Shown here one piece after another: positions 29,751 through 50,876 of a stretch of 64,000 bases of DNA. A program made the position numbers and the translations under genes. The notes beneath the pieces were generated by a model. The model was not told the origin of the DNA. It ran no database searches and was given only the letters and a program-made list of their open reading frames with translations. Within the stretch, counting starts at the first letter, position 1. Each line of letters begins with the position of its first letter. Source of the stretch: a virus; the IMG/VR virus record IMGVR_UViG_3300025543_000013, positions 12,475 through 76,474 of that record, one strand, 5' to 3'.

Positions 29751-29757
29751 GAGAGTT

Positions 29758-32700: not shown

Positions 32701-33708
32701 GCACCAACAACCGCAGGTATCGCAAGTATGTTTGCCGGTAGAGGAAACATCAAAACTGCATTTGTTGGAGCAATGAAAGATTTAGAAAATGCGATTGGTA
32801 AATTATCCAATCCACAAAAAGAAAAAATATTTGGTAATGGAACCAAATGGATGAACTTGGAGGTTATATATCCACAAACAGCAAATGTAATCGATTATGA
32901 TGTCGCAGAAATTATATTTCACGGAACAATCGAATATGATAAAACCGGTAGACAAATAGGATATTCAAAAGAAGCAGCTCGTATGTTACAAGGTATGATA
33001 CAACAAATAAACCAAAACATTCAAAAAAGATTTAAAATCGGTAAACCAAACTTTTTACAATTGAATAAAGTTCAAGATTTTAGTAAAAAGAAATCTACAT
33101 TTTTAGGTAAATTAAATAAATTACAAGCACAATACGGATTAAAAGATAATGATAGATTAGGTCAGTATCACGAATCATTTTGGAGAGAATATATTTTTAA
33201 TGCAGCAAAACAATTTAAAGTTTCGTTGAAACAAAATGAATTAGTAAATTTAACGAATCGTTGGGCATACTTTGATAAATCATATAAAGTTCCAGAAATC
33301 AAAGAAGACTTTAAAGACAGACCAGAATTTATGAAATGGATATTAGATACAGATAAACTTGACCACAATAAAATGTGGAAAGAAAATATCAAACCATTTG
33401 AAATATTATTTTTTCAAGTAGGAGCAGAAATTCTAAAAAATATGTCAGGATTTTTAGCAGTATCACCGGATAAAGCAGTTCAAAAAATTAAACAAGATGT
33501 AACAAATGCATTAAAAGATTTACAAAAACCAGATAATGTAGAAAAGTTATCTAAATTAAAAACACAAATAGAAAAATTAGAAGCTATCGGGGGTTCAAGT
33601 GCAATCGTTCCAAGTGAAGGATTGGTATTTAAATACAATGGTAGTCTTTACAAGTTTACCGGAGCATTTGCACCGATTAATCAAATACTCGGTAGTTTAA
33701 GATTTTAA
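29758..33708 (+). CDS. 1316-aa multidomain polyprotein: KOW-like domain, Ntn-hydrolase, DLYTDENP domain, HIGH nucleotidyltransferase, unknown domain, KxDG ligase-like domain
   Basis: Start at ATG 29758 behind SD AGGAG. Motifs: E|CIAF...GKNRD...EGMN, YPGRFQPF...SSGTEIR, GHMNHPFD...EKLDGQN...EGLVF. Confidence 0.8.
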   Translation: MKSKLTEWLVKPYINEGVELDIEVGDDVLMGRFKNKRVKVKSIDWNDKGDLLINGRPALKFRKVDNDRKLLPTKKSGEDSIEPDSDRKGIDDEFPYYKTENTMHECIAFSKKFGDDIVLGKNRDRNYTPELKIVREISGNGIEVCYVQDQDTDWSEGMNSNGIGLVNSALFVKRDEKDYDKSKKKKAPSKDGIRIRHALSKDTLRDVVESLVKFDTGVKGHTIVSDGKKVVVIENTSRTKASVKIHDISNSVVRTNHGLEHPEQGYTRGPDRISSQLRLKNAQNIIDNESDYKKLFPKFYNHTQNKGPKYDVVRAQNKLWTSSQILMNLNKREMMLYLIPGAVKFIGVENKLPKGYDKKINLVVREYEHSPSDKYGTYVKTTEKPKPSAIKDKDIKVESFFGLEAKRIPRKKGQHQGSSSHSDLYTDENPKGTIHGLKFATVDDAKKSVSKIKGSGKSHAHKIQAAVAMEQRAREMGKTAQAAVYRSYINQMKKKTKEKNEGFFGLGAGDIPSPSRKMVKKMKKKGNTSVPYGSGYKKVNEQKSKIKKVIAIYPGRFQPFGPHHKKVFDALSSKFDDAYITTSNIKQPPRHPMNFNEKVRHMVKMGVPKNKIVQEKSPYVANNLLRKFDKDTTAVVYVFGAKDAGRLAGGTKKSGGKTYYQDLKSNINDLKGYEEHGYIYTAPHVNVSGISSGTEIRNLLGSPKFDEKKRQQIFKKTFGYFDQGLYNMLTNKFKKLFEFYQQPQVKKLLKEVSALGTHFNGSDLDDEGMYDFFGSIDDYVRVSPMHAEILGWELIGFPIRDTEDMMFTIMSDDYEKDRVDTTTFGRTINQNTRNTKSVDNPFPKYKEHMRNVVGNLGWEIIKFYGEESFTKMKDSPTLNKKDVYKGVDHIKDKLAEEFVEDVKKVFLIEGGAYGHMNHPFDDNNLTFSDLKNIIIYGLEGTLNREDNVSEKLDGQNLMVSWVDGNLRAARNKGHLKNGGKTAPTTAGIASMFAGRGNIKTAFVGAMKDLENAIGKLSNPQKEKIFGNGTKWMNLEVIYPQTANVIDYDVAEIIFHGTIEYDKTGRQIGYSKEAARMLQGMIQQINQNIQKRFKIGKPNFLQLNKVQDFSKKKSTFLGKLNKLQAQYGLKDNDRLGQYHESFWREYIFNAAKQFKVSLKQNELVNLTNRWAYFDKSYKVPEIKEDFKDRPEFMKWILDTDKLDHNKMWKENIKPFEILFFQVGAEILKNMSGFLAVSPDKAVQKIKQDVTNALKDLQKPDNVEKLSKLKTQIEKLEAIGGSSAIVPSEGLVFKYNGSLYKFTGAFAPINQILGSLRF

Positions 33709-34589: not shown

Positions 34590-34970
34590 ATGAGATATTT
34601 AATTTACATATTATTTTTTGGATTAGTTTTTTCACAAGACGCAACCAAAACCTACACTTTTACCGAAGATGAAGTTTTGGGATTCACTAATCGTATCAAA
34701 GAATTAGAACTAAAAGATAGTTTGAATGTTTCTTTGGTAATGGATTTAGAATCACAAATCAAATTATATGAGGAAAACTCAGTAATTGATTCAATGTTGA
34801 TTGAGAATAAAACTAATCAAATTAATCTACTGAAAGACACCACCAAACTTCTTGAACAAAAAGTAAAACTCGTTCAACCTAAATGGTATGAAAACAAATG
34901 GTTATACTTTACATATGGAGTTTTGATGACTGCTACATCAGTTAAGTTAGCAGGTCAAATAGTAGATTAA
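34590..34970 (+). CDS. Secreted or membrane coiled-coil protein (possible spanin-like)
   Basis: Signal-peptide-like N-terminus, coiled coil, KWYE.KW plus a C-terminal hydrophobic segment. Confidence 0.5.
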   Translation: MRYLIYILFFGLVFSQDATKTYTFTEDEVLGFTNRIKELELKDSLNVSLVMDLESQIKLYEENSVIDSMLIENKTNQINLLKDTTKLLEQKVKLVQPKWYENKWLYFTYGVLMTATSVKLAGQIVD

Positions 34971-36554: not shown

Positions 36555-38417
36555 ATGGCAGATACAACATTATTTGGGAGACTACGAAGATTATTTGCAA
36601 CAAATGTAATTGTTCGTAATGTCGGTGGTAAAAAACTAAAAATCGCCGATACAGACCAAGTTCAAAAACAGGTTAAATCACACCTTGTTGATAGATATAC
36701 AAAACTACACAACAACTTAGATTTAGTCGGAACAGGTTATTCCACCGTTCATCAAATAATGGCGGCAAGATTGGCATTATTCAAAGATTATGAGTCAATG
36801 GATTCCGACCCAATTATTTCATCAGCGTTGGACATTTATTCAGATGAATCCACTATGAAAGGTGAATACGGAGATGTAATTAAGATTAAATCTGAAAATG
36901 AAAACATTAAAGAAATTCTACATAATTTGTTTTATGATATTATGAATGTTGAGTTCAATTTATGGCCTTGGGTTCGTAATATGGTAAAGTATGGAGATTT
37001 CTTTTTATACTTAGATGTTCAAGAACAATATGGTATTACCAATGTAGTTCCATTATCACCTTATGAAATCATAAGAGCAGAAGGTGAAGACCCAACTAAT
37101 CCTTATTATACAAAATTTTATTTAGAAAGTATTGAAGGAGCACACCCTTACTTCGGACAACAAAGAAGTGGTAAAGGAAAAATAGAATTTGAAAATTTCC
37201 AAATTGCACATTTTAGAATGGCTAATGATAGTAATTTCTTACCTTATGGTAAATCTATGATTGAATCTACTCGTAAAATTTGGAAACAATTAACACTTAT
37301 GGAAGACGCAATGTTAATTCACAGAATTATGAGAGCACCTTCTAAACGAGTATTCAAAATTGATATTGGAAACATTCCACCAAATGAAGTTGACAATTAT
37401 ATGCAAAGAATTATCAACAAGATGAAGAAAACACCATTTGTTGATGAATCAACCGGTGAATATAATTTAAAATACAATATACAAAACTTAACAGAAGATT
37501 TCTTCTTACCGGTTCGTGGTGGAGATTCAGGAACAGAAATCAATGAATTAGGTGGTATTGATTATGATTCAACCGAAGATGTTGAATATCTAAAAAGTAA
37601 ACTTTTAGCATCACTAAGAGTACCGAAAGCATTCTTAGGATTTGATGAAAATGTTGGTGGTAAAGCAACCTTAGCAGCAGAAGATGTTAGATTCGCAAGA
37701 ACCATTGAAAGAATACAAAGAATTATTGTAAGTGAATTAACAAAGATAGCAGTTGTTCACTTGTATTCACAAGGATACACCGACGCAGACTTGGTAAACT
37801 TTGAATTAGAATTAGCAAGTCCTTCAACAATGTATGAACAAGAAAAGATTGAATTATGGGGACAGAAAGTTACATTGGCTCGTGATATGTTGAGTGATAA
37901 AATTCTACCTTATAATTGGATTTATGATAACATTTTTAATTTTTCACAAGAAGAAAAAATTCAAATTGAAAATGAAATCATTGAAGACCAAAAACAAAAA
38001 TTCAGACACTCACAGATTGAAATGGAAGGTAATGACCCAATGAATACCGGTGAGGCAGTAGGAACACCAAGTAGTATGGCAACTATCGGTATCGGTGCAG
38101 AAGACCAAGCAACACCACCCGAAACCGCAGCAGGTTCCATATTCGACCCAATGTATGACGGAGAAGACGACAGACCAGAAGACCAACAAGGTGGTCGTCC
38201 ACAAGAGATGAACCACTATGGAAAAGATAGTGGAGCAAGAGGTCGTGACCCATTAGGGAAACAAACTAAAAACAGACGACCTTTAGCACTCGCTCACTAC
38301 GACGCATTAAAGAAAACAATGGGTAATAAGTCAAAGGACATACTGAACGAAACCAAACAAGTAGATGAATTAAAAGAAGAATATAATGAATATACTAAGG
38401 AAAACGGAGAGAAATAA
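36555..38417 (+). CDS. gp20: Portal protein (T4 gp20-like)
   Basis: EDAMLIHRIMRAP.KRVF.IDIGN.P, EDFFLPVRGG, L.VPK.FL. Confidence 0.95.
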   Translation: MADTTLFGRLRRLFATNVIVRNVGGKKLKIADTDQVQKQVKSHLVDRYTKLHNNLDLVGTGYSTVHQIMAARLALFKDYESMDSDPIISSALDIYSDESTMKGEYGDVIKIKSENENIKEILHNLFYDIMNVEFNLWPWVRNMVKYGDFFLYLDVQEQYGITNVVPLSPYEIIRAEGEDPTNPYYTKFYLESIEGAHPYFGQQRSGKGKIEFENFQIAHFRMANDSNFLPYGKSMIESTRKIWKQLTLMEDAMLIHRIMRAPSKRVFKIDIGNIPPNEVDNYMQRIINKMKKTPFVDESTGEYNLKYNIQNLTEDFFLPVRGGDSGTEINELGGIDYDSTEDVEYLKSKLLASLRVPKAFLGFDENVGGKATLAAEDVRFARTIERIQRIIVSELTKIAVVHLYSQGYTDADLVNFELELASPSTMYEQEKIELWGQKVTLARDMLSDKILPYNWIYDNIFNFSQEEKIQIENEIIEDQKQKFRHSQIEMEGNDPMNTGEAVGTPSSMATIGIGAEDQATPPETAAGSIFDPMYDGEDDRPEDQQGGRPQEMNHYGKDSGARGRDPLGKQTKNRRPLALAHYDALKKTMGNKSKDILNETKQVDELKEEYNEYTKENGEK

Positions 38418-38481: not shown

Positions 38482-39354
38482 ATGTCTTATGTAAAACATA
38501 ATAAGATAAAGAATACAGGTATTCTTTATGAACTTTTATCTCGTCAAATTACTGTTGATGTGATAAATGACACAAAAAATCCTAAGTCAGTTAAATTATT
38601 TAAAGAATTTTTTAATAAAAATACTGAATTAGGTAAAGAATACGAATTATATTCAATCTTATTGAATAAAAAATACAAAAACTTGACTCACGCATCTTCT
38701 TTATTAGAAGCAGTAGTCAAAAGTCGTCGTAAATTGTCAAATCGTCGTTTGGCAAATGAAAAATTCAATCTAATTAAAACAATTAAAGAAAATTACGACA
38801 TCAAAGAATTCTTCAATACAAGAATTCCTAACTTTAAAGTATTGGCATCGGTTTATCGTGTTTTTCAAACAGAAACCGGCAAAGAAGACTTTGGCCCATT
38901 AGCAAAAACAGATTCATCAATCACCATAACTGAACATATTACTCAAACTAAACAAACAAGAGTGAAAAAACAAGTTATGAGTGAATATTCTTCACAAGAA
39001 AAAGATTTAAGATTGTTAAGTTATCAGTTATTAGTGGATAAGTTTAATAAAAAGTATAAGTCTTTAAATGAAAGTCAAAAAAACTTGTTGAAACAATATA
39101 TCAACAATGTATCTAATACAAATTCATTAAAAGAATTTATAGATTCAGAAGTAATCAAAGTCAAGAGAGCTCTAAAGACACTACTTCCAAAGATAGATGA
39201 CAAGATTACAAAAATTAAACTTTCAGAAGCTATTAACTACACAGACGAAGCCACAAAAGGTAAAGTCGTGAAAGATAAACACGTGGTTGCATTGATGAGA
39301 TACTATGAACTTATTAAGGAAATAAAAAATGTCCAATCACGACAAAATAGCTAA
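38482..39354 (+). CDS. Conserved head-module hypothetical protein (prohead core-like)
   Basis: KH.K.KNTGILYELL. Lies between portal and protease. SD GGAG before ATG 38482. Confidence 0.65.
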   Translation: MSYVKHNKIKNTGILYELLSRQITVDVINDTKNPKSVKLFKEFFNKNTELGKEYELYSILLNKKYKNLTHASSLLEAVVKSRRKLSNRRLANEKFNLIKTIKENYDIKEFFNTRIPNFKVLASVYRVFQTETGKEDFGPLAKTDSSITITEHITQTKQTRVKKQVMSEYSSQEKDLRLLSYQLLVDKFNKKYKSLNESQKNLLKQYINNVSNTNSLKEFIDSEVIKVKRALKTLLPKIDDKITKIKLSEAINYTDEATKGKVVKDKHVVALMRYYELIKEIKNVQSRQNS

Positions 39355-40723
39355 ACTCAAAGAAATCATTAGACACTTAGTTGTTCAAGAACTAAGAAAA
39401 GATGATATCGAAGAAGCATCAACAACTGCTTCTGCCGGTGCAGCAAATCCAATGGGAACCGGTATTCATTACGATACACCAAAAGCATTCTCAAGTGGTT
39501 CAGCAGTTGGACACAAAAGTCCAGAAGTCGGTGGATATAAAAAAATCAAAGAAGATAAAGACATTGGTCACCAAGACGACGAACCAGATATGTTGAAATC
39601 TACTGCATTGGAAATCCAAGAGTATGGTAAAAAACTATACGACGCATTAGATAAATACGACAAGATGGAAGACGAAGTTGATTTTCCTAATTGGTGGCAG
39701 TCAAAACTAATCGTTGCAAAAGATTATCTACAAAAAGCATATCATTATTTAAATTCAGAAGAAAAGAAAGACGGAGTTCAAGAATCAATCACCGGTTCAG
39801 ACAGAAAAGAATTACTACAAATCGGTAAAGAAATCAAAGATAACTTGATAAAACATCATTCAGGTCTTAGTGGAAATGAAAGAATGTTGACACAAGCAAT
39901 AGGTTCAACATTTATGTCTATGGGATTTTCACCAGATAACAAAAATTATCAAAACTACAAAAAATACTTTCCAAAAAACTTTAATAGTTCATCAGTTCAA
40001 AAATTAGCTGGTATACTACAAAAGGAAAAAGATACCGTTAGAGCAACATTTTTTAAACAAGTTGTTAAAGAATCAATAAATGAAAAAACATCACCAAACG
40101 AAATGTATGATGATATGGTAAAAACTTTAAACACATCAAATCAAAAAAAGGCATTACAAAGATTAATAGATGAGTTTGAAATCGGTAGAGTTTATTATAT
40201 GTTTTCAACAAATAGACGAGGATTTTTCCAAGCAGTTTTAACCGCAGAAGCATTGATGAAAGCAAAAAATCTAAAAGAAGTCACTCAACAAGAAATTGAT
40301 GCGGTAAACAAACTTGTTAAAAGTTTTGATGTATTACGAAAAGAATATCAAAAAATCACCAACACAGGTGATAAAACACTTAAAGACAAAATATTCAATA
40401 ATTATTATGAATATATCCAAGTGGCTCAAAAAGAAATGGAAAGACTTGCAGGAATTTTAAAAACCAAACAAATGATAGGTGAGGGTCGTTATCACGAATG
40501 GAGAAACGACGAATCCCTAACACCAAAACAAAAGATTGGTCAATCCGTAAAAGAAATTAGAGATTCATTAAACGAATTAGACAAAACAATCAAAATGAAT
40601 TTAAAATTAAAAACAGAATTAAATATGAGTTCTCAAGATTATTGGAAGAACACACACAAAGCACTAACCAAAATTTCTGAAAGGTTAGTTAAAATGGCAA
40701 ACAAAGTAGGAAATTTAAAATAA
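39329..40723 (+). CDS. Modular head-associated protein with internal xxE junctions
   Basis: DIEE|ASTT, KIKE|DKD, VQE|SITG, ESINE|KTS, NLKE|VTQ, MIGE|GRY. Confidence 0.6.
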   Translation: MSNHDKIAKLKEIIRHLVVQELRKDDIEEASTTASAGAANPMGTGIHYDTPKAFSSGSAVGHKSPEVGGYKKIKEDKDIGHQDDEPDMLKSTALEIQEYGKKLYDALDKYDKMEDEVDFPNWWQSKLIVAKDYLQKAYHYLNSEEKKDGVQESITGSDRKELLQIGKEIKDNLIKHHSGLSGNERMLTQAIGSTFMSMGFSPDNKNYQNYKKYFPKNFNSSSVQKLAGILQKEKDTVRATFFKQVVKESINEKTSPNEMYDDMVKTLNTSNQKKALQRLIDEFEIGRVYYMFSTNRRGFFQAVLTAEALMKAKNLKEVTQQEIDAVNKLVKSFDVLRKEYQKITNTGDKTLKDKIFNNYYEYIQVAQKEMERLAGILKTKQMIGEGRYHEWRNDESLTPKQKIGQSVKEIRDSLNELDKTIKMNLKLKTELNMSSQDYWKNTHKALTKISERLVKMANKVGNLK

Positions 40724-41346
40724 TGAAACAAGTTATCGTAGATTACACACCATTTAATGTTTCAGCAACTCAAATCAATGAGTCAATGAAAGAAAACAAC
40801 GGAAAGTTGATTGTAAAAGGTGTATTACAAAGAGCAGAAGCAAAAAATCAAAATGGTAGAGTATATCCAAGAGATATTTTAGTTCGTGAATCTAAAAAAT
40901 ACAACGAAAATTTTGTAAGTCAAAACAGAGCACTCGGTGAATTAGACCACCCAGATAGTTCCGTAGTTAATTTACAAAATGTTTCTCACAATGTCAAGGA
41001 AATGCATTTCGAAGGTGACAATTTAGTCGGAACCGTAGAAATCTTGACAACACCAAGTGGTAATATCTTAAAAGAGCTATTTAGAAATGGTATCAAATTA
41101 GGTATTAGTTCACGAGGATTGGGTAGTGTCGAAATGGTACAAGAAGCCAACGGAGACACCGTATCAAAAGTCGGTGATGACTTTGAATTAATCGCTTTTG
41201 ATTTTGTTTCCAATCCTTCAACTCACGGAGCATTCTTATATCCACAAAAAATGAATGAGTCCGTAGACAACACCTTAACCGGTAGAACTTGTGGAGATTA
41301 TTGTAAGGCAGAAAATATAATTAATTCAATTATTAGAGGCGAATAA
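40723..41346 (+). CDS. gp21: Prohead core protease (T4 gp21-like)
   Basis: NQNGRVYP, ALGELDHP, VSH, GISSRGLGS, FDFVSNPSTHGA. Confidence 0.95.
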   Translation: MKQVIVDYTPFNVSATQINESMKENNGKLIVKGVLQRAEAKNQNGRVYPRDILVRESKKYNENFVSQNRALGELDHPDSSVVNLQNVSHNVKEMHFEGDNLVGTVEILTTPSGNILKELFRNGIKLGISSRGLGSVEMVQEANGDTVSKVGDDFELIAFDFVSNPSTHGAFLYPQKMNESVDNTLTGRTCGDYCKAENIINSIIRGE

Positions 41347-41741
41347 TGGACTTACGAGAATTATCAAAAATCACAACAAGATACACCAATCGTTTAGATG
41401 AAGCAATGAAAATCAAAGGTGCTAATGGTAAAATGGTTGAAGTTCCAAGTGAATACGGAAGAATAATGAGTGGAATCGATAGAGTGATGTCAAAATTTAG
41501 TCCACGAGGAGTTATGTTTGGATATCAAAGATATCACAAACTAAAACCAAATGATGAATATAGTGGTTCAATTATTTTAAAAAATCCGTTATCTAAAAAA
41601 GATACTGATGATGTTATGAAACATCTTAAAAGTGCAGGTAGTTCATTAGGAGTTAAATTTGAAAAAATTACATTTAATCCAGATAGAAATGAACCATTTG
41701 TTGAATTTAGAATAGATGACGATAGTTTAATGGTGAGATAG
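41346..41741 (+). CDS. Hypothetical putative head cargo protein
   Basis: Leader ends RLDE|AMKI, the same junction as in 44098-44535. Confidence 0.6.
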   Translation: MDLRELSKITTRYTNRLDEAMKIKGANGKMVEVPSEYGRIMSGIDRVMSKFSPRGVMFGYQRYHKLKPNDEYSGSIILKNPLSKKDTDDVMKHLKSAGSSLGVKFEKITFNPDRNEPFVEFRIDDDSLMVR

Positions 41742-41744
41742 AAA

Positions 41745-44096
41745 ATGCCAGCCGTTAGTAAAAAACAACAAAAATTTATGGGGATTGTAAGGTCAATCCA
41801 AAAAGGTGAACAACCAGCGTCTAAGTTTTCCAAAGACGCACAAGATGTTGCCAAAGATATGAAAAAGAAAGATGTGAAGAAATTCGCATCAACCAAACAT
41901 AAGGGTTTACCAATGAAAAAAGAACAAATGATAAATCGTTTAAAAGAAATGATTAAACAAGAATTATCAGAATACACTTATGGTGTAGGTGATATCGTTA
42001 AAGATGTCAATCCTTCTTGTTTACATTACGGAGCAATCGGTAAAGTAAAAGAGGTAAATCCAGAATATGTTACTTTTGTCGTGACGAACAACGGAGATAA
42101 TTTTTCCAAAGGACAAACATTAGAAAAATCACACGACCAAATGAAAAAAGTGAATGAAGGTTCAATGGATTGGGAAAAGAAACATTTCCCTTGGGCAAAT
42201 AAAGAAGAACAAATGATGATTGCTAAACTTGTGTTTTCAAATAAAGATGGTATTGATGGTGAAGTAAAACGTCAAAAGAAGAACCCGAGTTCTTATAAAG
42301 ACCACATAAAAAGAATGGTTAAAAAAGGATTACACGAATCAGTAAATGAATCAACTGCCAGAACTGATAAATCAATCGGAACTAAAAACTACAAAGGTGT
42401 AGGTTGGTTCTGGCCAAATGATGGTTGGAAACATTATTTAAGAGATGTTGAAAACGCAGGAAGAAAAGAAGTTCACGACCTTTGGTTAAAAGCAGGATTT
42501 GAAGTTAAAAAAGACAATCGTGGAATTCCACACTTTGACATTAAACCAAATGAAAGAGGAAAGGCAATGGACATTGTTAACAAATTAGACAGGTCAAAAA
42601 AATATAAACACGCTAACGAATCAGTAAACGAAGCAACATTTACACCAATTGATAAAATAAAAGATATTAAAAACTTAGTAAAAAAAGATTTAGTAACATA
42701 TAGAGGTGGTAAAGGAGGTGGTTATGAAATAGCAATTCGTAATAGAAAAGTTCCTGGTTGGCCAATACCACGTGATTTATATTTCACAAAAGATGGTAGA
42801 GTGAATACATCACCAGAAGCACAAAAGACTATTTCCGATACAAGAAGAAAACAATATGCAATAAAACCAATTGCAGTATATAATATACATTCTAATGATT
42901 TAAGGAAATTAAGGCAATTTGGAGACGTTGTAGGATTAGCACCAAACAGGAGAGAATCAGTAGAATCAGTAAACGAAGCAAATCCAAAAGATACTATTGC
43001 AACTATCGATATGGTAAATGCATTATTAAAAATTAAAAGTCCAATGTCAAGACAAACTTTAGACGCACTAAAAATGATGGTTAGACATTATGGACTTGAC
43101 AACATTAAAAAAGAAGTTCAAAGAGATGCCAGAAAATTTTACAAAAGTTTACAAAAAATGGAAAAAGGTTTAAACCAAGACATTGAACTTGAAAGTATCA
43201 TCAAAGAAGATTACTTTGTTCGTGGTGGTGAAGAATTTTCAAAAAACTTTTTAACCGGACTTGATTTAGTTATTTCACAGGCAAATAATTTAAAAGGTCA
43301 ATTATCAAAACATCCAGTTAAAAGAGATGTGAATAAATTAAGAGCAATTCAAACAATTTATAAAAAGTTTTTACAACCATCAATAGATAAACAAACTGAC
43401 CGTTTCAAATCAGTTGATTTAACTAAAGTAAAAAAATATTTACAAGACGGAAAATTTAGAAATGCACTTGAATATGAAATATTAAGTGCACTTTCTACAA
43501 GTAGTTACAATAGTAATTCTTATCGTTTCTTAGATGATAAACAACAAGAATTAGTAAAAAAACTTAGCAGTTCTTTAAAAGATTTAACCAATAAATTAGA
43601 CAAAGCACAATTGGAATCAGTAAATGAAGCAAGTGTATCACAAGTTCGTTCAACTATATCAAGAGTTAAAAAACAATTGATGCAAAAATGGGCTAAAAAA
43701 GGTGGATACGAAAACTTTGGTCAAAAAGAACTTCGTAATTTAAGAGATAAGTTTAAAGAAAATCCTTATGGTAGTCCAGAAGAAAGAAAGATTTCAGATA
43801 TGTTAAGTGCATTTGATAATTGGGCTATGAATTATAGTGGTGATATGAGAGAAACAGTAATTAAAGAAGCCGGTGGTGTAGAAAAGATTTTAGATATGGC
43901 AAGAAATAATTCATATGGAAAACTTGGTGGACAAACCGTTGATGGTCTGACTGCAAATTTATTTAAAGCAGTTTACGATAGAGCACCACAAGACGCAAAA
44001 GATAAAGTTAATAAAATGAACGAAAGAGAATTAATCAGATTTATGGGTAATTTATGGAATAAGTTCGGTAAAAACGTTACTTTGAGGAGTAGTTAA
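41745..44096 (+). CDS. ESVNE-punctuated polyprotein (N-terminal DUF3008-like and KOW-like modules plus several unrelated modules)
   Basis: MPAVSKKQQKFMG...FASTKHKGLP. Four ESVNE sites plus ELSE, KVNE, IIKE and VIKE junctions. Confidence 0.75.
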   Translation: MPAVSKKQQKFMGIVRSIQKGEQPASKFSKDAQDVAKDMKKKDVKKFASTKHKGLPMKKEQMINRLKEMIKQELSEYTYGVGDIVKDVNPSCLHYGAIGKVKEVNPEYVTFVVTNNGDNFSKGQTLEKSHDQMKKVNEGSMDWEKKHFPWANKEEQMMIAKLVFSNKDGIDGEVKRQKKNPSSYKDHIKRMVKKGLHESVNESTARTDKSIGTKNYKGVGWFWPNDGWKHYLRDVENAGRKEVHDLWLKAGFEVKKDNRGIPHFDIKPNERGKAMDIVNKLDRSKKYKHANESVNEATFTPIDKIKDIKNLVKKDLVTYRGGKGGGYEIAIRNRKVPGWPIPRDLYFTKDGRVNTSPEAQKTISDTRRKQYAIKPIAVYNIHSNDLRKLRQFGDVVGLAPNRRESVESVNEANPKDTIATIDMVNALLKIKSPMSRQTLDALKMMVRHYGLDNIKKEVQRDARKFYKSLQKMEKGLNQDIELESIIKEDYFVRGGEEFSKNFLTGLDLVISQANNLKGQLSKHPVKRDVNKLRAIQTIYKKFLQPSIDKQTDRFKSVDLTKVKKYLQDGKFRNALEYEILSALSTSSYNSNSYRFLDDKQQELVKKLSSSLKDLTNKLDKAQLESVNEASVSQVRSTISRVKKQLMQKWAKKGGYENFGQKELRNLRDKFKENPYGSPEERKISDMLSAFDNWAMNYSGDMRETVIKEAGGVEKILDMARNNSYGKLGGQTVDGLTANLFKAVYDRAPQDAKDKVNKMNERELIRFMGNLWNKFGKNVTLRSS
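42336..43631 (+). repeat. Dispersed in-frame direct repeat GAATCAGTAAAYGAA(GCA) encoding ESVNE(A)
   Basis: Copies at 42336, 42618, 42963 (with a partial tandem copy at 42954) and 43614. Variant GAATCAATAAATGAA near 40070. Confidence 0.9.
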
Positions 44097-44097
44097 A

Positions 44098-44535
44098 ATG
44101 GATAAAAAATTAGCAATGAAAATAAGTGATTCTTGGAAAGACTTTCGTTTAAATTCTTTAACAGAAGCAATGAAAATTTTCCCAGCTGGAGCACAACACG
44201 GATTTGATTTAACAGATTTCAAACCAAGAGGATTTGAAAAGTTTTTAACTGCATTAGGTATTCCTAAAGTGGCAAAAGGTTCATCAACCGGAGTAAGTTG
44301 GTCTGCAGGAAATAATTTTTATTGGAGAAACAAAGATATTATTATCATTACTGCAAACAATCCAATTACAGGTCAATATTATGCACCAGACAGAAGAAGT
44401 CCAGAAAAGAATTACGCATCATATGTGGGAATTGAAACAAAAAATCCAGATGATATGGAAAGAGTGGTTAAATTATTTAAACAACACACATCTTATCGTA
44501 AAGGTGAATCAAAAGGTAGAAGGGATTTTGTATAA
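44098..44535 (+). CDS. Hypothetical putative head cargo protein
   Basis: Leader ends SLTE|AMKI. Confidence 0.6.
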   Translation: MDKKLAMKISDSWKDFRLNSLTEAMKIFPAGAQHGFDLTDFKPRGFEKFLTALGIPKVAKGSSTGVSWSAGNNFYWRNKDIIIITANNPITGQYYAPDRRSPEKNYASYVGIETKNPDDMERVVKLFKQHTSYRKGESKGRRDFV

Positions 44536-45587
44536 TGATTAAAATTAAAGATATCATTAAAGAACATAAAATCATAATGACTGAGGCATTTGCATCAGGT
44601 AAACTTCGTGCATTGACAAACAATTGGAGGTCAAACGATTCAGACTTTTGGGCATACGGAGCAAAACTTGGTATCGAGTGGGACAAAATCACAGACCAAG
44701 AAATCAAAACCAATACCAAACCACTTAAAAAAGGAATTGAACTTGTTTATGTTGATAAAGATGTTTCAGTTCCACAAAAAGGTAACACAGGAAATTGGGG
44801 TAGATATGATATCGGTATTGACAAGTTTACATTGATTAGTGTGTTGAAAGACGGAAAACCACTTTGGTATACAAAAAGTTGGAAACCATTAACCAATGTA
44901 ATGACTGCAACCGGTAAATCAACTAAAACAAGTCGTTATGGTAGAACAACAAGTAGAGTTCCAGATATAGACGCAGGTTCAAGAGATTGGTCAAAAAATA
45001 GACAATTTGGATTAAATATGACCGGATATCAATCATTAGCAGGTATGATGTCAATACCAGGAGTTAAATTCCATCACATTGATTTATCAGAAGACCAACC
45101 TTATATGGGGGCTGGTATCAAACGACAAATGAGACAAGCAGCTCAATTCGGTGCAGCAAAATTCACCACTAATGATGAATTTGCAAGAATTAACAGACAA
45201 TACTTTGACGAATTGTTAAAAGCAAGATTAAACGACCCTAAAAAATTAGCACAAAAAGTAAAACAAGCAGCTGATTTTTGTCAACAAATTATTGACGCAG
45301 CACTTGGTGGTGTTACAGCAACAGGTAAAGTAAAAAGTATTATTGACAAATTTCAGTCCAATAGAACAACTGCAACACAAGAGGCAGACGCTTATGCATT
45401 GGCATCAGAGGTAGGTGATGAATTAAGTAGATTGTATAGATATTATGGATATTATTTAGAAGCAATCCAAAAAGAAAAAGAAGATAAAATTAAATACGGA
45501 ACAGCAGACTTCACAAAAGATGAAGCTGAAGGCCACGCAAAAGATGTTCAACAATATTACAATTATATTATGGGAGGAAAATTCTAA
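44535..45587 (+). CDS. Hypothetical protein with MIKIKDIIKE tag
   Basis: Shared N-terminal tag, second site IMTE|AF. Confidence 0.7.
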   Translation: MIKIKDIIKEHKIIMTEAFASGKLRALTNNWRSNDSDFWAYGAKLGIEWDKITDQEIKTNTKPLKKGIELVYVDKDVSVPQKGNTGNWGRYDIGIDKFTLISVLKDGKPLWYTKSWKPLTNVMTATGKSTKTSRYGRTTSRVPDIDAGSRDWSKNRQFGLNMTGYQSLAGMMSIPGVKFHHIDLSEDQPYMGAGIKRQMRQAAQFGAAKFTTNDEFARINRQYFDELLKARLNDPKKLAQKVKQAADFCQQIIDAALGGVTATGKVKSIIDKFQSNRTTATQEADAYALASEVGDELSRLYRYYGYYLEAIQKEKEDKIKYGTADFTKDEAEGHAKDVQQYYNYIMGGKF

Positions 45588-45850
45588 TGATTAAATTAAA
45601 AAACATATTAACAGAAAATGATTTAACTTTTGTTTCAAAAATAATCGGTAAACCAGTTCGTGATATCGAAAGATTTCTTGACAAGAATAAAAAATTTCGT
45701 TCGGGTCAATTATACGATTATCTTGACTTAGCTTACGATAATCAAGAAAGAAAAGAACGTGGAGAAGAAATTGTTAAGGCGATGAAAGGTGATAGTAAAG
45801 CACTTAAAGAATTAAATAGATTATTAAAATATTTTGGTAAAGATTACTGA
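45587..45850 (+). CDS. Small protein with MIKLKNILTE tag
   Basis: Shared N-terminal tag. Confidence 0.7.
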   Translation: MIKLKNILTENDLTFVSKIIGKPVRDIERFLDKNKKFRSGQLYDYLDLAYDNQERKERGEEIVKAMKGDSKALKELNRLLKYFGKDY

Positions 45851-45852
45851 TA

Positions 45853-46107
45853 ATGATTAAATTAAAAAACATATTATCCGAACAAGACAACACCATTGAT
45901 AAAAAAGAATGGGAAAAAGTCAGCACAACCATTTATGACGGAATGGATACTTTGTTTTTTAAAGGTGTTAAGTATTTAAGAGATTACGATAGGTCAAACT
46001 TACCACCAAAAGAAAAAAGAATGTTAACTGACTTTTTCAATGATTTCTCAGCACTTCAAAGAAGATTTGGAAAAATAGAAAGAGAAATTGACAGGTATGC
46101 AAAATGA
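45853..46107 (+). CDS. Small protein with MIKLKNILSE tag
   Basis: The first 24 nt are identical to 45587-45610; the rest is unrelated. Confidence 0.7.
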   Translation: MIKLKNILSEQDNTIDKKEWEKVSTTIYDGMDTLFFKGVKYLRDYDRSNLPPKEKRMLTDFFNDFSALQRRFGKIEREIDRYAK

Positions 46108-46619
46108 TTAAATTAAAATCTATATTACAAGAAGAAATGAATCCAAGAGACAAACGAGAGTTTGAAGCAGCAGCTCGTGGTATCGAAACTAATTTAGAAT
46201 ACATCAAAGAAGAAGTCACAAGACTTGTCAAACTACTCAATAAAGAAGGTATGAGAAAGTCAGCAAACGAACTTCAAATATCATACAAAAGACGAGTATT
46301 AGAATTTGGATTAGATGTAAAAAACATTACAAGACAACACATTGGAGAAGCAACAACAGGATTTACAGACGCAGGTAGAGGATATCAAAACAAAGAAACT
46401 CAAACCTTTTCAGTAAACGCAGTTAAAGACGCAAGTAAACAAGTTGGTAAATTACAACAAAGTGTTGTTGGACAATTTATCAAAGATATCAATCAGAAAA
46501 AATATGATGCTATGGACTTGGTTCGTGCAATCAAAACCACACCATTGGGTGACGCATCATTTAGTAAAAAAGATTTTTTTATGTCTTTGTTTGATTTGAT
46601 TAAAAAACGAACAAGATGA
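46104..46619 (+). CDS. Two-module protein with MIKLKSILQE tag
   Basis: Shared tag, internal HIGE|ATT junction. Confidence 0.7.
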   Translation: MIKLKSILQEEMNPRDKREFEAAARGIETNLEYIKEEVTRLVKLLNKEGMRKSANELQISYKRRVLEFGLDVKNITRQHIGEATTGFTDAGRGYQNKETQTFSVNAVKDASKQVGKLQQSVVGQFIKDINQKKYDAMDLVRAIKTTPLGDASFSKKDFFMSLFDLIKKRTR

Positions 46620-46627
46620 TATTTATA
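46620..46627 (+). promoter_or_regulatory. Putative late promoter TATTTATA
   Basis: Recurrent intergenic motif. Confidence 0.6.
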
Positions 46628-46644
46628 TACAAGGAGAAAACAAA

Positions 46645-47418
46645 ATGGCTAAATTAAAAAAATTAATCAAAGAAAACTTCTCATTAGTCGGTGGGGTAGT
46701 TTCAACACCAGCAATAGGTGGTGGGTATACTTCTTTATCAAGAATCGTTAAAGAAAAATATGGTGAAACACCAACACAAAAGATTACTTCTAAACAAGTA
46801 GCAGAAGCATTGAGAAATTATAATCAAATTGGTAAATCACTTTATCAACAACAATCATTAAAAGAAACTGCAAAAAGATTATCATCAATCGCAGAAATGG
46901 CAGCTTCTCACACATTACAAGAAACAGAAGATTGGTTTGATAAAGTTACGGTTTCTCGTAATATGAAAGAATTAACCAATCACTCAAAAGCATTTTCAAA
47001 AATAGCAGAAGAAGCATCATCCGTTCAACAAAGATTAGCCAGTTTGTATGAAGATATGGGTATGATTCTAAATCGTTATTATGATATTCCAGAAAGTGAA
47101 GAAAAGGATAAAGAAGAATACGGAAGTAATACAATTGAAGAAGGTGATTATGAAGAATTCTTCCAATCAGCAATGAAAAAATTTGGTGTATCTTCACCTG
47201 ATGATTTTAAAACTGATGAAGAAAAGAAAAAGTTCTTCAATTATGTTGATAAAAATTATCAAGCAAAATCAGAAGGCAAAGTATATGAAGGTGGGCCAGG
47301 AAGTGGTAGACCAGGTGGTAAGATGCCACAACCAAGTGATTTCGGTGGAAATATGGATAAATACTTTGATGCGTTAAACAAAAGAATGGCTGACGACGAA
47401 AAAAGAAAGAAAAAATAA
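46645..47418 (+). CDS. Head-associated protein with MAKLKKLIKE tag and appended modules
   Basis: DWFDKVTV.RNMKEL...LYEDMG..L.RYY core, then TIEE|GDYEEFF.SAMKKFGV.SP and VYE|GGPGSG modules. SD AGGAG. Confidence 0.7.
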   Translation: MAKLKKLIKENFSLVGGVVSTPAIGGGYTSLSRIVKEKYGETPTQKITSKQVAEALRNYNQIGKSLYQQQSLKETAKRLSSIAEMAASHTLQETEDWFDKVTVSRNMKELTNHSKAFSKIAEEASSVQQRLASLYEDMGMILNRYYDIPESEEKDKEEYGSNTIEEGDYEEFFQSAMKKFGVSSPDDFKTDEEKKKFFNYVDKNYQAKSEGKVYEGGPGSGRPGGKMPQPSDFGGNMDKYFDALNKRMADDEKRKKK

Positions 47419-47684
47419 TGAAACTTAAAAAACTATTAAACGAAAATCTTTGGAACGAAAGAAAGTTTGGTGAGTCATTACCAACACTTGAAGACACTAC
47501 CAAAGCATATAAATTAAAACAAGAACAAGAAATCAACGAAGAACCAATCGTTGAAAACAATTCATCACTTAAAGCAAAAATGATTCGACATATACAAGAT
47601 ATGGTAAAATATAGTGATAGACTTGGTAGTGATGAAATTGATGAATTAAAAGAATTGTTAAAATTAGTGCAACAAATCAGATAA
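47418..47684 (+). CDS. Small protein with MKLKKLLNE tag
   Basis: Shared tag, W.ERKFGE.LPTL. Confidence 0.65.
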   Translation: MKLKKLLNENLWNERKFGESLPTLEDTTKAYKLKQEQEINEEPIVENNSSLKAKMIRHIQDMVKYSDRLGSDEIDELKELLKLVQQIR

Positions 47685-47701: not shown

Positions 47702-47902
47702 TTGTTAAAAGTAGAGATTCGTAAGGGTCAATCAGTAGAAAAAGCACTTAAAATATTCAAACGAAAAGTCAAAGACTCAGGTATTATGTTTGAATTAAAA
47801 GAGCGTTCTTTTTATAAAAAGCCATCGGCAATCAAAAGAGAACAAAAAAACAAAACAAAACTGAGAGCCAAATACGAAAAATTAAAAAATCAAGAAGATT
47901 AA
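47702..47902 (+). CDS. rpsU: Phage-encoded 30S ribosomal protein bS21
   Basis: V.I..G.S.EKALK.FKRKV..SG...E.KER.FY.KPS..KR. TTG start. Confidence 0.9.
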   Translation: MLKVEIRKGQSVEKALKIFKRKVKDSGIMFELKERSFYKKPSAIKREQKNKTKLRAKYEKLKNQED

Positions 47903-47949: not shown

Positions 47950-48058
47950 ATTACGAAACTAAATACACTATCGTACATTCGTACATCATATAGTGTAATC
48001 TATTAAAACTATATTATAGTTCCTAATAACTATATTGAATCCAAACGGAGATTATAAA

Positions 48059-49210
48059 ATGGATGATTTACTAAGAGAAGCTATTGCAGATGCTAAAGCA
48101 GTTCGTGAAACCGCACTTGCAAATGCTAAAATAGCACTTGAAGAAGCATTCACACCACGTTTGCAATCTATGTTGTCTAAGAAAATCGCAGCAGAAGCAG
48201 AAGAAATGGACGCAGAAGAAGAAATGGACGCAGAAGAAGAAATGGACGCTGAAGAAGAAATGGACGCTGAAGAAATGAGAGATGCTGAAGAAATGAGAGA
48301 TGCTGAAGAAATGGACGCAGAAGAATCTGAACACGAAATGTCAGAAGAAGAAGATGCAGAAGAATCTGAACACGAAGAAATGCGTGAAGAAGAAGACGCT
48401 GAAGAATCTGATGATGAAATGAGAGAATCAGAAGACGCTGAAGAAGAAGACTCAGTTGAAGAAGCAGAAGATGCAGAAGAAGAAGATGAACTTGATTTAG
48501 AATCAGTTCTTCGTGAATTAGAAGCAGACTTAGATGATGAAGACAATGTTGAAGAAGCAGAAGATACTGAAGAAGAAGATACTATGGATGAAAATGATGT
48601 ATCATCTGATATCGGTGACGCTGACAACAAAGTCAATCCAGAAGCAAATGATTCTTCAAAAACAGGTGCACCAGGTCCAGAAGGCGAAGGTTCAGATAAG
48701 AAAGCAGGTGATGAACTTGGCGACCACGAAACAGTGGACGACTTAACTGAAGCAGAAGATACCGAAGAAGGTGACTTAGACTTAGACGAAGTTCTAAGAG
48801 CACTTACTGAAGAAGAAGATGCAGAAGAAGAAGCAGAGAAGGTGGAAGCACTTCAAAAAGAAATCAAAGAGTATCGTAAAGTAATTAACTTTATGAGAAG
48901 AAACTTAAACGAAGTTAATCTCTTGAATGCTAAATTATTGTTCTCAAACAAACTATTTAGAGCATTTGGACTTAACAACAACCAAAAATTAAAAGTTGTT
49001 GAAACATTTGACAGAACTACAAACTTAAGAGAAGTTAAATTGGTTTACGCTACATTAGCAGAATCATTTAAAAGACCTACAAGTAAAATAGTTGAGTCAA
49101 AAGGTTCAAGTTCTAAAGCAGTTCGTTCTACAAAACCAGCAAAACAAGAAGTTTTGTCAGAGGGAGCAGAATTAAGAAATAGATTCAAGAAATTAGCAAA
49201 CATACTTTAA
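48059..49210 (+). CDS. Prohead scaffold/core protein (functional gp22 equivalent), highly acidic
   Basis: Immediately upstream of the capsid gene. EAIADAKAVRETALANAK..LEEAF.P, LNEVNLLNAKLL, C-terminal RFKKLANI. SD GGAG before ATG 48059. Confidence 0.85.
   Translation: MDDLLREAIADAKAVRETALANAKIALEEAFTPRLQSMLSKKIAAEAEEMDAEEEMDAEEEMDAEEEMDAEEMRDAEEMRDAEEMDAEESEHEMSEEEDAEESEHEEMREEEDAEESDDEMRESEDAEEEDSVEEAEDAEEEDELDLESVLRELEADLDDEDNVEEAEDTEEEDTMDENDVSSDIGDADNKVNPEANDSSKTGAPGPEGEGSDKKAGDELGDHETVDDLTEAEDTEEGDLDLDEVLRALTEEEDAEEEAEKVEALQKEIKEYRKVINFMRRNLNEVNLLNAKLLFSNKLFRAFGLNNNQKLKVVETFDRTTNLREVKLVYATLAESFKRPTSKIVESKGSSSKAVRSTKPAKQEVLSEGAELRNRFKKLANIL
48200..48325 (+). repeat. Imperfect 15/18-bp tandem repeat encoding EEMDAE/EEMRDA
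   Basis: gaagaaatggacgcagaa and variants, about 7 copies. Confidence 0.85.
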
Positions 49211-49226: not shown

Positions 49227-50876
49227 ATGAGCAAATTAGGCGCAATTGAGAAATTGATGGACGGATATAATCCGCAAAGACAATTGCTTGAGCAAACTCG
49301 TAAATTAGTCAAGAAATGGGAACCAACAGGTCTTTTAGAAGGTCTTAACGACGAAACTAAAAGACACGGAATGGCAGTTCTTCTTGAAAACCAAGCTTCA
49401 CAGCTTATTCAAGAAGCTTCCGTAACAGGAACATCTGCAAATTCTGAAGAATGGTCAGGTGTAGCATTACCATTAGTTCGTAGAATTTTTGGTGAGTTAG
49501 CAGCACAAGACTTTGTGTCAGTTCAACCTATGAACTTACCATCAGGTCTTATTTTCTATCTTGACTTTAAATACGGAACAGCACAAACAGGCCTTCACAC
49601 ACAAAATTCTGATGTATATGGTAATACTTCAGGTTCAGGTGACGCAAGTGGCGGTCTATATGGAGCAGGTAAATTCGGCTATACAATCAACGACAAATCT
49701 TCATCAGTATTGACAATTGGAGCTACAGCTAACGCATCAGCGTTCAGCACAGGTTCAGTTGACTGGGAAGACGTAGATTACGAAGGTGATTTATCAGCAT
49801 CTCAAGCTATTGCAGATAGTGCAGACAATGCACTTATTAAAGTTGTCGTTGCAGACGCAGCAATCTCAGGTCTTGACAAGGACGGAGTTAGAGCATTCTC
49901 TATCTCAGGTTCTGGTTTTGACGAGTTCTTCCCTGCATACACAAAATACAGTACAACAAACTCTACAACTACATTTATTGTAAGAAAATCTGGAGTTGGT
50001 TCACTAATTAACGCAGTTGTTACATATCACAAACAACCAACAACTGATTACAGCAGAACTGATTTTGAAACAGATTCAAACAGCATTAATGCAAACCCAG
50101 AAGCAGATATTGACATACCAGAACTTGATATCGCATTAAAGAGTATTCCAATCATTGCGAAAACTCGTAAGTTAAAAGCAGTCTGGACACCAGAACTTGC
50201 ACAAGACTTAAATGCATATCACTCAGTTGATGCAGAAGCAGAATTAACATCTCTACTTTCTGAGTACATTTCTATGGAAATTGACTTAGAAATCTTAGAT
50301 ATGTTGATGTCAAACGCTTCAGCAAAAACAGAATATTGGTCAGCAAGAGTTGGATACGAGCATGACGCTACAAACAACACTTTTGCACAATCTTCAGGTG
50401 AGTCAAATGCTTACACCAAAGGTACTTGGTTCCAAACACTTGGTAACAAGATACAAGCAGTTTCTAATGCAATTCATCAAAAAACTCTAAGAGGAGGTGC
50501 AAACTTCTTAGTTGTTTCACCAGAAACAGCAACAATCATAGAGTCAATTCCTGGATATGCAGCAGACACAACAGGTGATGCTTCATCAAATCAATTTGCA
50601 ATGGGTGTACAAAAAGTTGGTGCATTAAACAACAGATACACTGTTTATAAGAACCCTTATATGTTAGAAAATCAAATCCTTGTTGGATTTAGAGGTGCTA
50701 ACTTCTTAGAAACAGGTGCGGTTTATGCTCCATATGTACCACTCATTATGACACCATTAGTGTACGACCCGAAAAACTTTACACCAAGAAAGGGTGTAAT
50801 GACTCGTTACGCTAAGAAGATGGTTAGAAGCGAATTCTACGGTAAAGTTATCGTATCAGACGTTTCTTATGTCTAA
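49227..50876 (+). CDS. gp23: Major capsid protein (T4 gp23-like)
   Basis: VSVQPMNLPSGLIF, AKTRKLKAVWTPELAQDL, YAPYVPL, F.P..GVMTRYA. Probable maturation site LIQE63|A. Confidence 0.97.
   Translation: MSKLGAIEKLMDGYNPQRQLLEQTRKLVKKWEPTGLLEGLNDETKRHGMAVLLENQASQLIQEASVTGTSANSEEWSGVALPLVRRIFGELAAQDFVSVQPMNLPSGLIFYLDFKYGTAQTGLHTQNSDVYGNTSGSGDASGGLYGAGKFGYTINDKSSSVLTIGATANASAFSTGSVDWEDVDYEGDLSASQAIADSADNALIKVVVADAAISGLDKDGVRAFSISGSGFDEFFPAYTKYSTTNSTTTFIVRKSGVGSLINAVVTYHKQPTTDYSRTDFETDSNSINANPEADIDIPELDIALKSIPIIAKTRKLKAVWTPELAQDLNAYHSVDAEAELTSLLSEYISMEIDLEILDMLMSNASAKTEYWSARVGYEHDATNNTFAQSSGESNAYTKGTWFQTLGNKIQAVSNAIHQKTLRGGANFLVVSPETATIIESIPGYAADTTGDASSNQFAMGVQKVGALNNRYTVYKNPYMLENQILVGFRGANFLETGAVYAPYVPLIMTPLVYDPKNFTPRKGVMTRYAKKMVRSEFYGKVIVSDVSYV

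Follow-up and report, generated by a model that had tools for sequence, protein, structure and literature searches.

A probable capsid-cargo polyprotein of an uncultured T4-like phage, and the coding repeat at its module borders

Why should a five-residue peptide recur between dissimilar segments of one long phage protein, and be written each time in nearly the same DNA? The question is raised by an open reading frame (ORF) at positions 41745-44096 (plus strand) of a 64,000-nucleotide stretch of IMG/VR virus record IMGVR_UViG_3300025543_000013, which we refer to throughout as the window, and which encodes a protein of 783 residues (P0001; isoelectric point, pI, 9.7) divided by the sequence ESVNE. 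The window lies within a 76-kb virus record (31% GC; estimated completeness 42%) from an uncultured, T4-like, aquatic phage. Comparison with relatives, with metagenomic populations and with neighbouring genes leads us to propose that the ORF probably encodes a capsid-cargo polyprotein with repeat-bounded cassettes, which is the best overall explanation of its features.

The ESVNE repeat and its silent sites

An earlier reading of this stretch from its letters alone (the sequence-only reading) had described an uninterrupted frame punctuated by ESVNE, and its account of the DNA is borne out. All 783 codons are open, and GAATCAGTAAAYGAA, which encodes ESVNE, has exactly four copies in the 64-kb window (42336, 42618, 42963 and 43614), always on the plus strand and in frame, whereas 100 dinucleotide shuffles of the window yielded no copy. 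The first and fourth repeats (42336-42350 and 43614-43628) read GAATCAGTAAATGAA and the second (42618-42632) reads GAATCAGTAAACGAA; the third is directly preceded, at 42954, by a genuine 9-nucleotide partial copy, and the resulting stuttered element (42954-42977; GAATCAGTA-GAATCAGTAAACGAA) is translated ESVESVNE. In the whole 76-kb record, the sole further copy within one mismatch encodes ESINE, at 40070-40084 of the ORF that starts at 39329. The looser junctions ELSE (residues 73-76), KVNE (135-138), IIKE (485-488) and VIKE (705-708) are likewise present as described, and all eight junctions read [L/V/I]-x-E followed by A, S, G or D, matching the cleavage motif of T4-type cargo, including a small residue at P1'. 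The two repeats with an AAT codon, at 42336-42350 and 43614-43628, also contain TAAATG in the +1 frame; this is the usual stop-start overlap of coupled phage genes, and could mark an origin from separate abutting genes.

Serine is TCA and valine is GTA in all four window copies, which had been taken to suggest identity at the DNA level, and four copies with identical codons for E, S, V and E have a probability of about 1e-3 under window codon usage. The case is far stronger across the family. Among 55 ES[V/I]NE copies from 19 loci, which are not independent as orthologous junctions are shared by descent, valine is GTA in 43 of 43 instances (background 40%) and serine is TCA in 49 of 55 (background 47%), AGT (31% of background) never being used; isoleucine is ATA in nine of 12. 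Neighbour effects explain little, given that GTA accounts for 45-53% of valine codons before asparagine elsewhere, and when only the 49 distinct junction contexts are counted, valine remains GTA in all 38 cases. Asparagine is free (30 AAT, 25 AAC), and the looser ENINE and ENVNE junctions use mixed codons. Shared descent does not explain the constancy of GTA and predominance of TCA, because in the N-terminal module, which is orthologous across these loci, several codons are in use at 10 of 12 conserved Val/Ser columns. The repeat is conserved as DNA and not as peptide alone; the codon contrast is too strong for peptide selection by itself, and calls for either ongoing homogenisation by repeat recombination or another nucleotide-level function.

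Whole modules as the unit of variation

A search of 5.8 billion proteins returned more than 816 relatives of 445-994 residues, none functionally named, of which the best 120, together with the query, form the 121 proteins used for family statistics. Rather than being collinear over their length, orthologs differ by whole modules bounded at the repeat, as the sequence-only reading had anticipated. In the IMG/VR relatives L001 and L002, an unrelated 61-residue module stands in place of modules D and E of the window protein (defined below), and the DNA is 93% identical to the window up to 2 nucleotides past repeat 1 and again from 1 nucleotide before repeat 3, while L004 carries yet other modules, likewise bounded by [V/I]NE. 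The closest seven protein relatives comprise one with the window architecture (P0002) and six, P0003-P0008, that each differ by whole modules, in six architectures. Across the 121 proteins ESVNE is the commonest 5-mer, with 214 copies. Cutting the chains at [VILM]NE resolves about 30 recurring module families of fixed lengths (67, 79, 60, 61, 64 and 52 residues, among others), and 90 architectures are built from them; family C2 alone is seen in 29 distinct neighbour contexts, and there are families that can stand before or after the core module, as well as families that a single chain may carry twice. High-scoring segment pairs of at least 90% identity have the motif at 75% of their internal ends and 79% of their internal starts, compared with 7-13% of random positions. 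Further, the identities of different modules show no correlation across 1700 protein pairs (r 0.00-0.23); between P0011 and P0074, for instance, identity falls from 100% in C2 to 94% in C1 and 38% in C0. Modules have therefore been exchanged between lineages, and not merely lost.

The window protein itself combines conserved and variable modules, all on the plus strand. Module A (residues 1-76; 41745-41972) is an N-terminal DUF3008 domain ending in ELSE, matched by Pfam PF11450 over residues 3-59 with 27.1 bits against a gathering cut-off of 24; it is conserved in the family, and DUF3008 was also matched in 32 of 32 relatives scanned with Pfam. Module B (residues 77-138; 41973-42158), likewise conserved, with many invariant alignment columns, is a predicted small beta-barrel of KOW/SH3-like type that ends in KVNE, and together A and B constitute cluster C1. 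Three variable cassettes follow: module C (residues 139-202; 42159-42350; family C14), which is always 64 residues long and is absent from P0005; module D (residues 203-296; 42351-42632; family C7), which stands before or after the core module in other relatives; and module E (residues 297-411; 42633-42977; family C19), which ends in ESVESVNE, is swapped for the 61-residue family C17 in P0003, and is absent from P0004. Modules F and G (residues 412-628; 42978-43628), with the IIKE junction between them, make up the near-universal helical core, family C0, present in 119 of 121 proteins. Cassette H (residues 629-708; 43629-43868; family C11) ends in VIKE here and in ESVNE in relatives, and module I (residues 709-783; 43869-44093; families C5 and C4) is one of three alternative C-terminal ends. 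Nearly all module families are basic, with pI 9.4-10.5.

The same borders vary within natural populations. The ORF was present in 18 metagenome runs from 12 studies, covering freshwater, estuarine, lagoon and marine samples, and Logan contigs of four runs were aligned over 41300-44600. In-frame deletions between repeats, which the sequence-only reading had proposed to look for in metagenomic reads, were found in independent metagenomes as contig joints at repeat borders. One contig of run X11 passes from 42148 to 42341, with the loss of 192 nucleotides (64 codons) that correspond exactly to module C; its joint reads in frame through ...KKVNE into module D, and the crossover lies inside AAAGT[G/A]AATGAA, common to both motifs. 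Other contigs join 42352 to 42962 (the borders of D and E together) and 42638 to 42962 (the borders of E), run X6 is without the 9-nucleotide stutter, contig ends cluster at repeats, and depth in X11 is lower in modules D and E than in their flanks. Logan contigs are assembled with a word of 31 nucleotides, and because the 15-nucleotide repeat is shorter than this, the joints are unlikely to be assembly chimeras. Long-range architectures may be chimeras of strains, so only the adjacency of neighbouring modules is safe; a joint in run X15 (42980 to 43637, with 8 extra letters) and stretches without contig cover were not used as evidence. It is scarcely credible that the ORF is itself an artefact of assembly or gene calling: although the data are all metagenomic, the 2.35-kb frame is uninterrupted in DNA of 31% GC, a 98% identical protein of 783 residues occurs in a separate data set, the ORF recurs in the 18 runs noted above, and the repeat is below assembly word size.

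These borders might also arise through selection only, if illegitimate recombination were random and only products with whole modules and cleavable junctions survived, the repeat being a passenger. Boundaries at cleavage sites would be expected anyway under this explanation, 15 nucleotides is short for homologous exchange, and the asparagine codon varies. Peptide selection, however, cannot fix silent sites such as the GTA and TCA codons of the motif, which contrast with mixed codons elsewhere in the same genes; moreover, the deletion joint of module C falls inside nucleotides common to both motifs, and the polymorphic stutter is a slippage footprint at the repeat. We consider selection alone an unlikely explanation, and recombination between the 15-nucleotide copies the likely source of gains, losses and swaps, deletions between short direct repeats being well known in T4. 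Several points weigh against a cargo polyprotein with recombining cassettes. The N-terminus is DUF3008, with no leader of 10-19 residues and no [LIV]-x-E before residue 66. The free asparagine codon indicates that homogenisation is incomplete, and the Ser and Val codons could be maintained by some role of the nucleotides that has nothing to do with recombination. At 15 nucleotides the repeat offers little length for homologous exchange, and boundaries would also become sharper if intact modules with cleavable ends were selected. Orthologous junctions are inherited together, which reduces the independence of motif copies, and the long-range architectures seen in metagenomes can be strain chimeras.

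A single integrated fold spanning the repeats, which would speak against separate modules, was not found; inter-domain error estimates were absent from the model, so contacts between modules are possible. In the AlphaFold2 prediction from the 121-row alignment (mean predicted local distance difference test, pLDDT, 65.6; predicted template modelling score, pTM, 0.30), the eight junctions, after residues 76, 138, 202, 296, 411, 488, 628 and 708, all lie in segments with pLDDT below 50 (22% of the chain falls in such segments); modules B (pLDDT 83-87) and G (81-94) are confidently predicted. Foldseek returned only weak matches in the PDB, to KOW domains of NusG/Spt5 (E 7e-3), which most likely belong to module B, the match ranges on the model not having been returned, and among viral models only alignments of low template modelling score, to other long multidomain phage proteins. 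Searches of Pfam, PHROGs, PDB sequences and the ESM Atlas detected nothing for the modules beyond DUF3008.

The cassettes are not private to the polyprotein. Judged by sequence similarity, the same modules are carried by at least three other carrier gene families and by a zeta-like P-loop polyprotein, and two of these families have short leaders like the T4 capsid-targeting sequence (CTS). In other phages, homologues of the 39329 ORF contain module H (62-71% identity), which appears again in an 823-residue chain with ESVNE-bounded modules on a 252-kb viral contig (L015:4654-7125); this chain starts with the zeta-like P-loop (Pfam Zeta_toxin, E 6e-4; 19.7 bits, below the 22.3-bit cut-off). Module D lies between ...LNE and ESVNE inside proteins of 200 residues that are otherwise homologous to the product of the leader-bearing gene at 47418 in the window; L106 and L107 have versions of this gene that lack the insert, at the corresponding place upstream of the scaffold. 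D and the 61-residue family C17 also occur in proteins of 320-400 residues with the leader MNIKKIIREE.... Similarly, relatives of the 39329 ORF, of 461, 309 and 360 residues, have conserved ends and a variable middle, and the middle of the 39329 ORF recurs in polyprotein P0078 as family C30. Of the earlier interpretation, module shuffling at the repeat, silent-site identity, deletions in populations and the lack of an integrated fold all stand; the cassettes, for their part, are not confined to one ORF and move among several carrier genes.

Proposed cleavage and packaging, and possible roles of the modules

As in T4-type cargo systems, the phage encodes a prohead protease of the S77 family: a T4 gp21-type serine protease gene occupies 40723-41346 (plus strand; Pfam PF03420, 2e-27; phrog_207, 3e-50), and the polyprotein ORF begins 400 nucleotides downstream of it. 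The GELDHP and GISSRG blocks of the protease, which we take from T4 gp21 to hold the catalytic His and Ser, are conserved, and xNE sites near both of its own ends (INE, MKE and KMNE|SV) are conserved in relatives. The gp23-like major capsid protein (49227-50876, plus strand; phrog_138, 4e-74) contains I-Q-E63|A64, close to the position of the T4 gp23 cleavage site, E65|A66. Cleavage is suggested by this capsid site, the motif fit and the adjacency of the protease, and we think it likely that the chain becomes part of the core and is divided at its junctions into about nine pieces of 62-140 residues. The known T4 enzyme, gp21, cuts after the Glu of L/I-x-E, and exchange of this Glu for Asp prevents processing in T4 (PMC9026906).

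Alternatively, ESVNE might be a conserved inter-domain linker or docking motif in an uncleaved multidomain protein, of the virion or otherwise, and its match to the protease rule a coincidence in a Glu/Lys-rich chain. Sequences of the form [VILM][NK]E do occur by chance in neighbouring genes, that of the portal included; the motif of the polyprotein, however, always ends in Glu, lies in predicted disordered linkers beside an S77 protease gene, and interchanges with VIKE, IIKE and ESVKE such that only the [V/I]-x-E core is kept, and the same cassettes stand behind T4-CTS-like leaders. An uncleaved chain is accordingly an improbable reading. No full-length relative of the polyprotein was found in the 'phages' collection, where the matches were to DUF3008 in cyanophages only. 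One cyanophage, S-SCSM1, has a DUF3008 gene that GenBank labels 'virion protein'; the S-SCSM1 paper reports 45 proteins identified by mass spectrometry of CsCl-purified virions, among which the DUF3008 product may be present.

Under the cargo-polyprotein interpretation, a conserved carrier, composed of the N-terminal DUF3008 domain, the KOW-like barrel, the helical core and one of three alternative C-terminal ends, would accommodate a changing set of small, mostly basic cassettes of 60-120 residues, each ending E-S-[V/I]-[N/K]-E. The chain would be built into the prohead core and cut after the last Glu of each junction by the adjacent S77 protease, and the roughly nine mini-proteins so released would stay with the DNA and probably enter the host alongside it. 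The 15 nucleotides of GAATCAGTAAAYGAA would double as a portable in-frame recombination site: crossing between copies by the phage recombination machinery could delete, duplicate, replace or transplant whole cassettes while leaving frame and cut site intact, with exchange from one position to another, from phage to related phage and from one carrier gene to another.

What the released pieces might do is a separate matter. They may be host-conflict effectors or DNA-associated internal proteins, at roughly equal odds, as fast turnover and the precedent of the T4 internal proteins favour the former, and the basic charge of most modules and their lack of known domains leave the latter equally open. 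A structural version of the second role, in which the fragments resemble T4 IPII/IPIII or pieces of gp22, gp67 or gp68, fill the core, neutralise DNA charge and turn over in a largely neutral fashion, is possible, albeit tentative as an explanation of the whole locus. It would fit the high pI of nearly all families, the absence of any enzyme or known anti-defence domain from the searches of Pfam, PHROGs, PDB sequences and the ESM Atlas, and the conserved core module and ends, which suggest a role in assembly. Set against this are the extreme turnover and the near-identical cassettes shared by diverged phages and carriers, which are more typical of conflict genes, the existence of a separate acidic scaffold, and the finding that all three T4 internal proteins inhibit restriction enzymes (PMC12373910).

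T4 supplies the closest precedent. Its internal proteins IPI, IPII and IPIII, together with Alt, are small, non-essential core cargo released by an S77 protease after a three-residue Glu motif, injected with the DNA and variable between relatives (PMC9026906; PMC12373910); the GmrSD enzyme that is inhibited differs among Ip1, Ip2 and Ip3 (PMC12373910). Internal proteins of T4 reach the prohead core by means of short N-terminal leaders that end in the gp21 motif, and a foreign protein attached to a leader of this kind is likewise packaged and delivered (PMC9026906). The locus described here shares with T4 cargo the protease family and, in the window, six nearby genes with T4-like leaders of ten residues. 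It differs in that each T4 cargo has a separate gene and its own leader, whereas here about nine are fused in one frame behind a DUF3008 N-terminus, so that one carrier could load all in equal numbers; the junction is also a fixed unit of five residues and 15 nucleotides, unlike that of T4 cargo. No sequence similarity was found between the polyprotein and any T4 internal protein.

A second point of comparison is PeSL shuffling, in which short repeated DNA motifs bound indels and replacements in the hyperplastic regions of T4-like phages (Arbiol et al., 2010, PMC2839356; Comeau et al., 2014, PMC4122927), and for which homologous recombination, including excised mini-circles, has been proposed (PMC2839356; PMC4122927). 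Indels between close relatives of the window are similarly bounded by the repeat. PeSLs are, however, intergenic promoter and terminator cassettes that move whole genes, whereas the present repeat is coding, in frame and 15 nucleotides long, and moves modules within genes; that it is not an intergenic promoter/terminator element rests on its position inside the ORF, no scan for promoters or terminators having been made. Polyvalent proteins (Iyer et al., 2017, PMC5512222) are likewise long and multi-modular, encoded near head genes, and predicted to be packaged, processed and delivered with the DNA, but what defines them is the presence of recognised enzymatic or conflict domains, in many cases together with a peptidase embedded in the chain. 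The present ORF is not a polyvalent protein in that sense, as it has no known conflict domains and no embedded peptidase: only DUF3008 is recognisable, the modules are of 60-120 residues, and the morphogenetic protease is separate. In the giant phages phiKZ, 201phi2-1 and SPN3US, a gp21 homologue cleaves many of the head proteins after Glu at short motifs, and the head carries a mass of protein that is ejected (PMC9026906, PMC10052503); those cuts mostly remove propeptides of separate products, and a cassette array with DNA-conserved junctions is not described there. Our literature searches found no published case of protease-site repeats serving as in-frame cassette junctions, no such polyproteins, and no paper mentioning DUF3008. 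Among the systems compared, the locus is best described as a probable head-cargo system of T4 type in which modular shuffling at repeats takes place within the reading frame.

Proteins that a phage injects are active before any of its genes is expressed, and outside T4 they are almost unknown. If the proposal is correct, a linker with a dual function in cutting and recombination would explain how a first-strike set can be renewed rapidly without breaking packaging or release, and would constitute an intragenic counterpart of integron cassettes and of PeSL shuffling in T4. The motif further provides a search handle that delimits hundreds of small candidate virion-delivered proteins in metagenomes, given that the relatives of the polyprotein alone exceed 816, and suggests a natural design for bringing several foreign proteins into a capsid from one gene. 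More speculatively, and with considerable doubt, ES[V/I]NE might be the attachment site of an integrase-free, in-frame cassette system of a large clade of aquatic T4-like and jumbo phages, in which modules would be excised as small circles via their flanking repeats and re-enter at any repeat copy in any head-targeted carrier, forming a pool of injected mini-proteins, many of them defence inhibitors, each equipped for packaging and release.

Neighbouring genes and further candidate carriers

The polyprotein lies within a head-gene region that begins with the large terminase (start at 34970) and the T4-type portal gene, gp20 (36555-38417, plus strand; Pfam PF07230, 1e-75), followed by an ORF of 301 residues and the second cassette carrier, of 464 residues (39329-40723, plus strand), which has a MSNHDKIAKLKE leader and a variable middle in addition to its ESINE junction. 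Between the protease and the polyprotein is an ORF of 131 residues (41346-41741), and directly after the polyprotein one of 145 residues. These two flanking ORFs have a 26-nucleotide stretch in common (repeat family D14; 41388-41413 and 44152-44177), which encodes ...[DT]E|AMKI behind different leaders. The gene after the protease encodes 131 residues in the window and 164 (L002:5328-5822), 251 (L004:5246-6001), 273 (L037:2906-3727) or 533 (L024:2400-4001) elsewhere; the longer forms have a variable middle between two copies of L-S-x-I-T-T-R-Y, and the form in the window resembles a deletion between two such copies.

Downstream, six consecutive genes (44535-47684, plus strand) encode products that start M-[IAK]-K-[IL]-K-x-[IL]-[IL]-x-E, a ten-residue leader ending in [IL]-x-E like the capsid-targeting sequence of T4; the leader DNA (AATGATTAAATTAAAAAACATATTA..., repeat family D3) is near-identical across the six genes and the bodies are unrelated, such that the array looks like a classical set of internal-protein genes. 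A gene for ribosomal protein bS21 (47702-47902; Pfam PF01165, 1.5e-12) separates the cargo genes from the scaffold, and Microcystis phage Mel-JY01 has a bS21 gene at the same place. The scaffold candidate, an acidic protein of 391 residues (48035-49210, plus strand), is encoded directly upstream of the capsid gene, and includes at 48176-48600 about 16 degenerate 18-nucleotide tandem units that encode (A/D)EEEMD-like repeats.

The nearest cultured phages by portal identity (50-54%), Flavobacterium phage vB_FspM_immuto and Mel-JY01, likewise have a gene for an acidic protein immediately upstream of that for the capsid protein, and in neither phage was a polyprotein-like gene found between the protease and this acidic protein. 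We considered and rejected a role for the polyprotein as a gp22-type scaffold, because these phages keep the acidic protein by the capsid gene without any polyprotein-like gene; the polyprotein is moreover basic, and the scaffold position is taken by the 48035-49210 ORF. Gene order marks the polyprotein gene as an addition, placed in a variable stretch that separates the protease from the scaffold.

Upstream of the terminase, at 28092-33708, are two long ORFs (552 and 1337 residues) with many x-N-E sites, which are possibly further packaged polyproteins. One matches DUF5661, and the other shows matches to two domains, one acyltransferase/Ntn-hydrolase-like (E 7e-5) and one cytidylyltransferase-like (E 1e-3); cyanophage virions are known to contain proteins of the cytidylyltransferase-like kind (PMC9602691). 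Finally, Flavobacterium phage vB_FspM_immuto_3-5A encodes a multi-module protein of 841 residues, immuto35A_191 (L021:7386-9911), with one exact 15-nucleotide repeat (MNE|SVNE) and two copies of a ...P-x-W-W-x-x-K-I...Y-L... helical module that also occurs in the 39329 ORF and in family C2; coming from a cultured phage, this protein might serve as a bench model.

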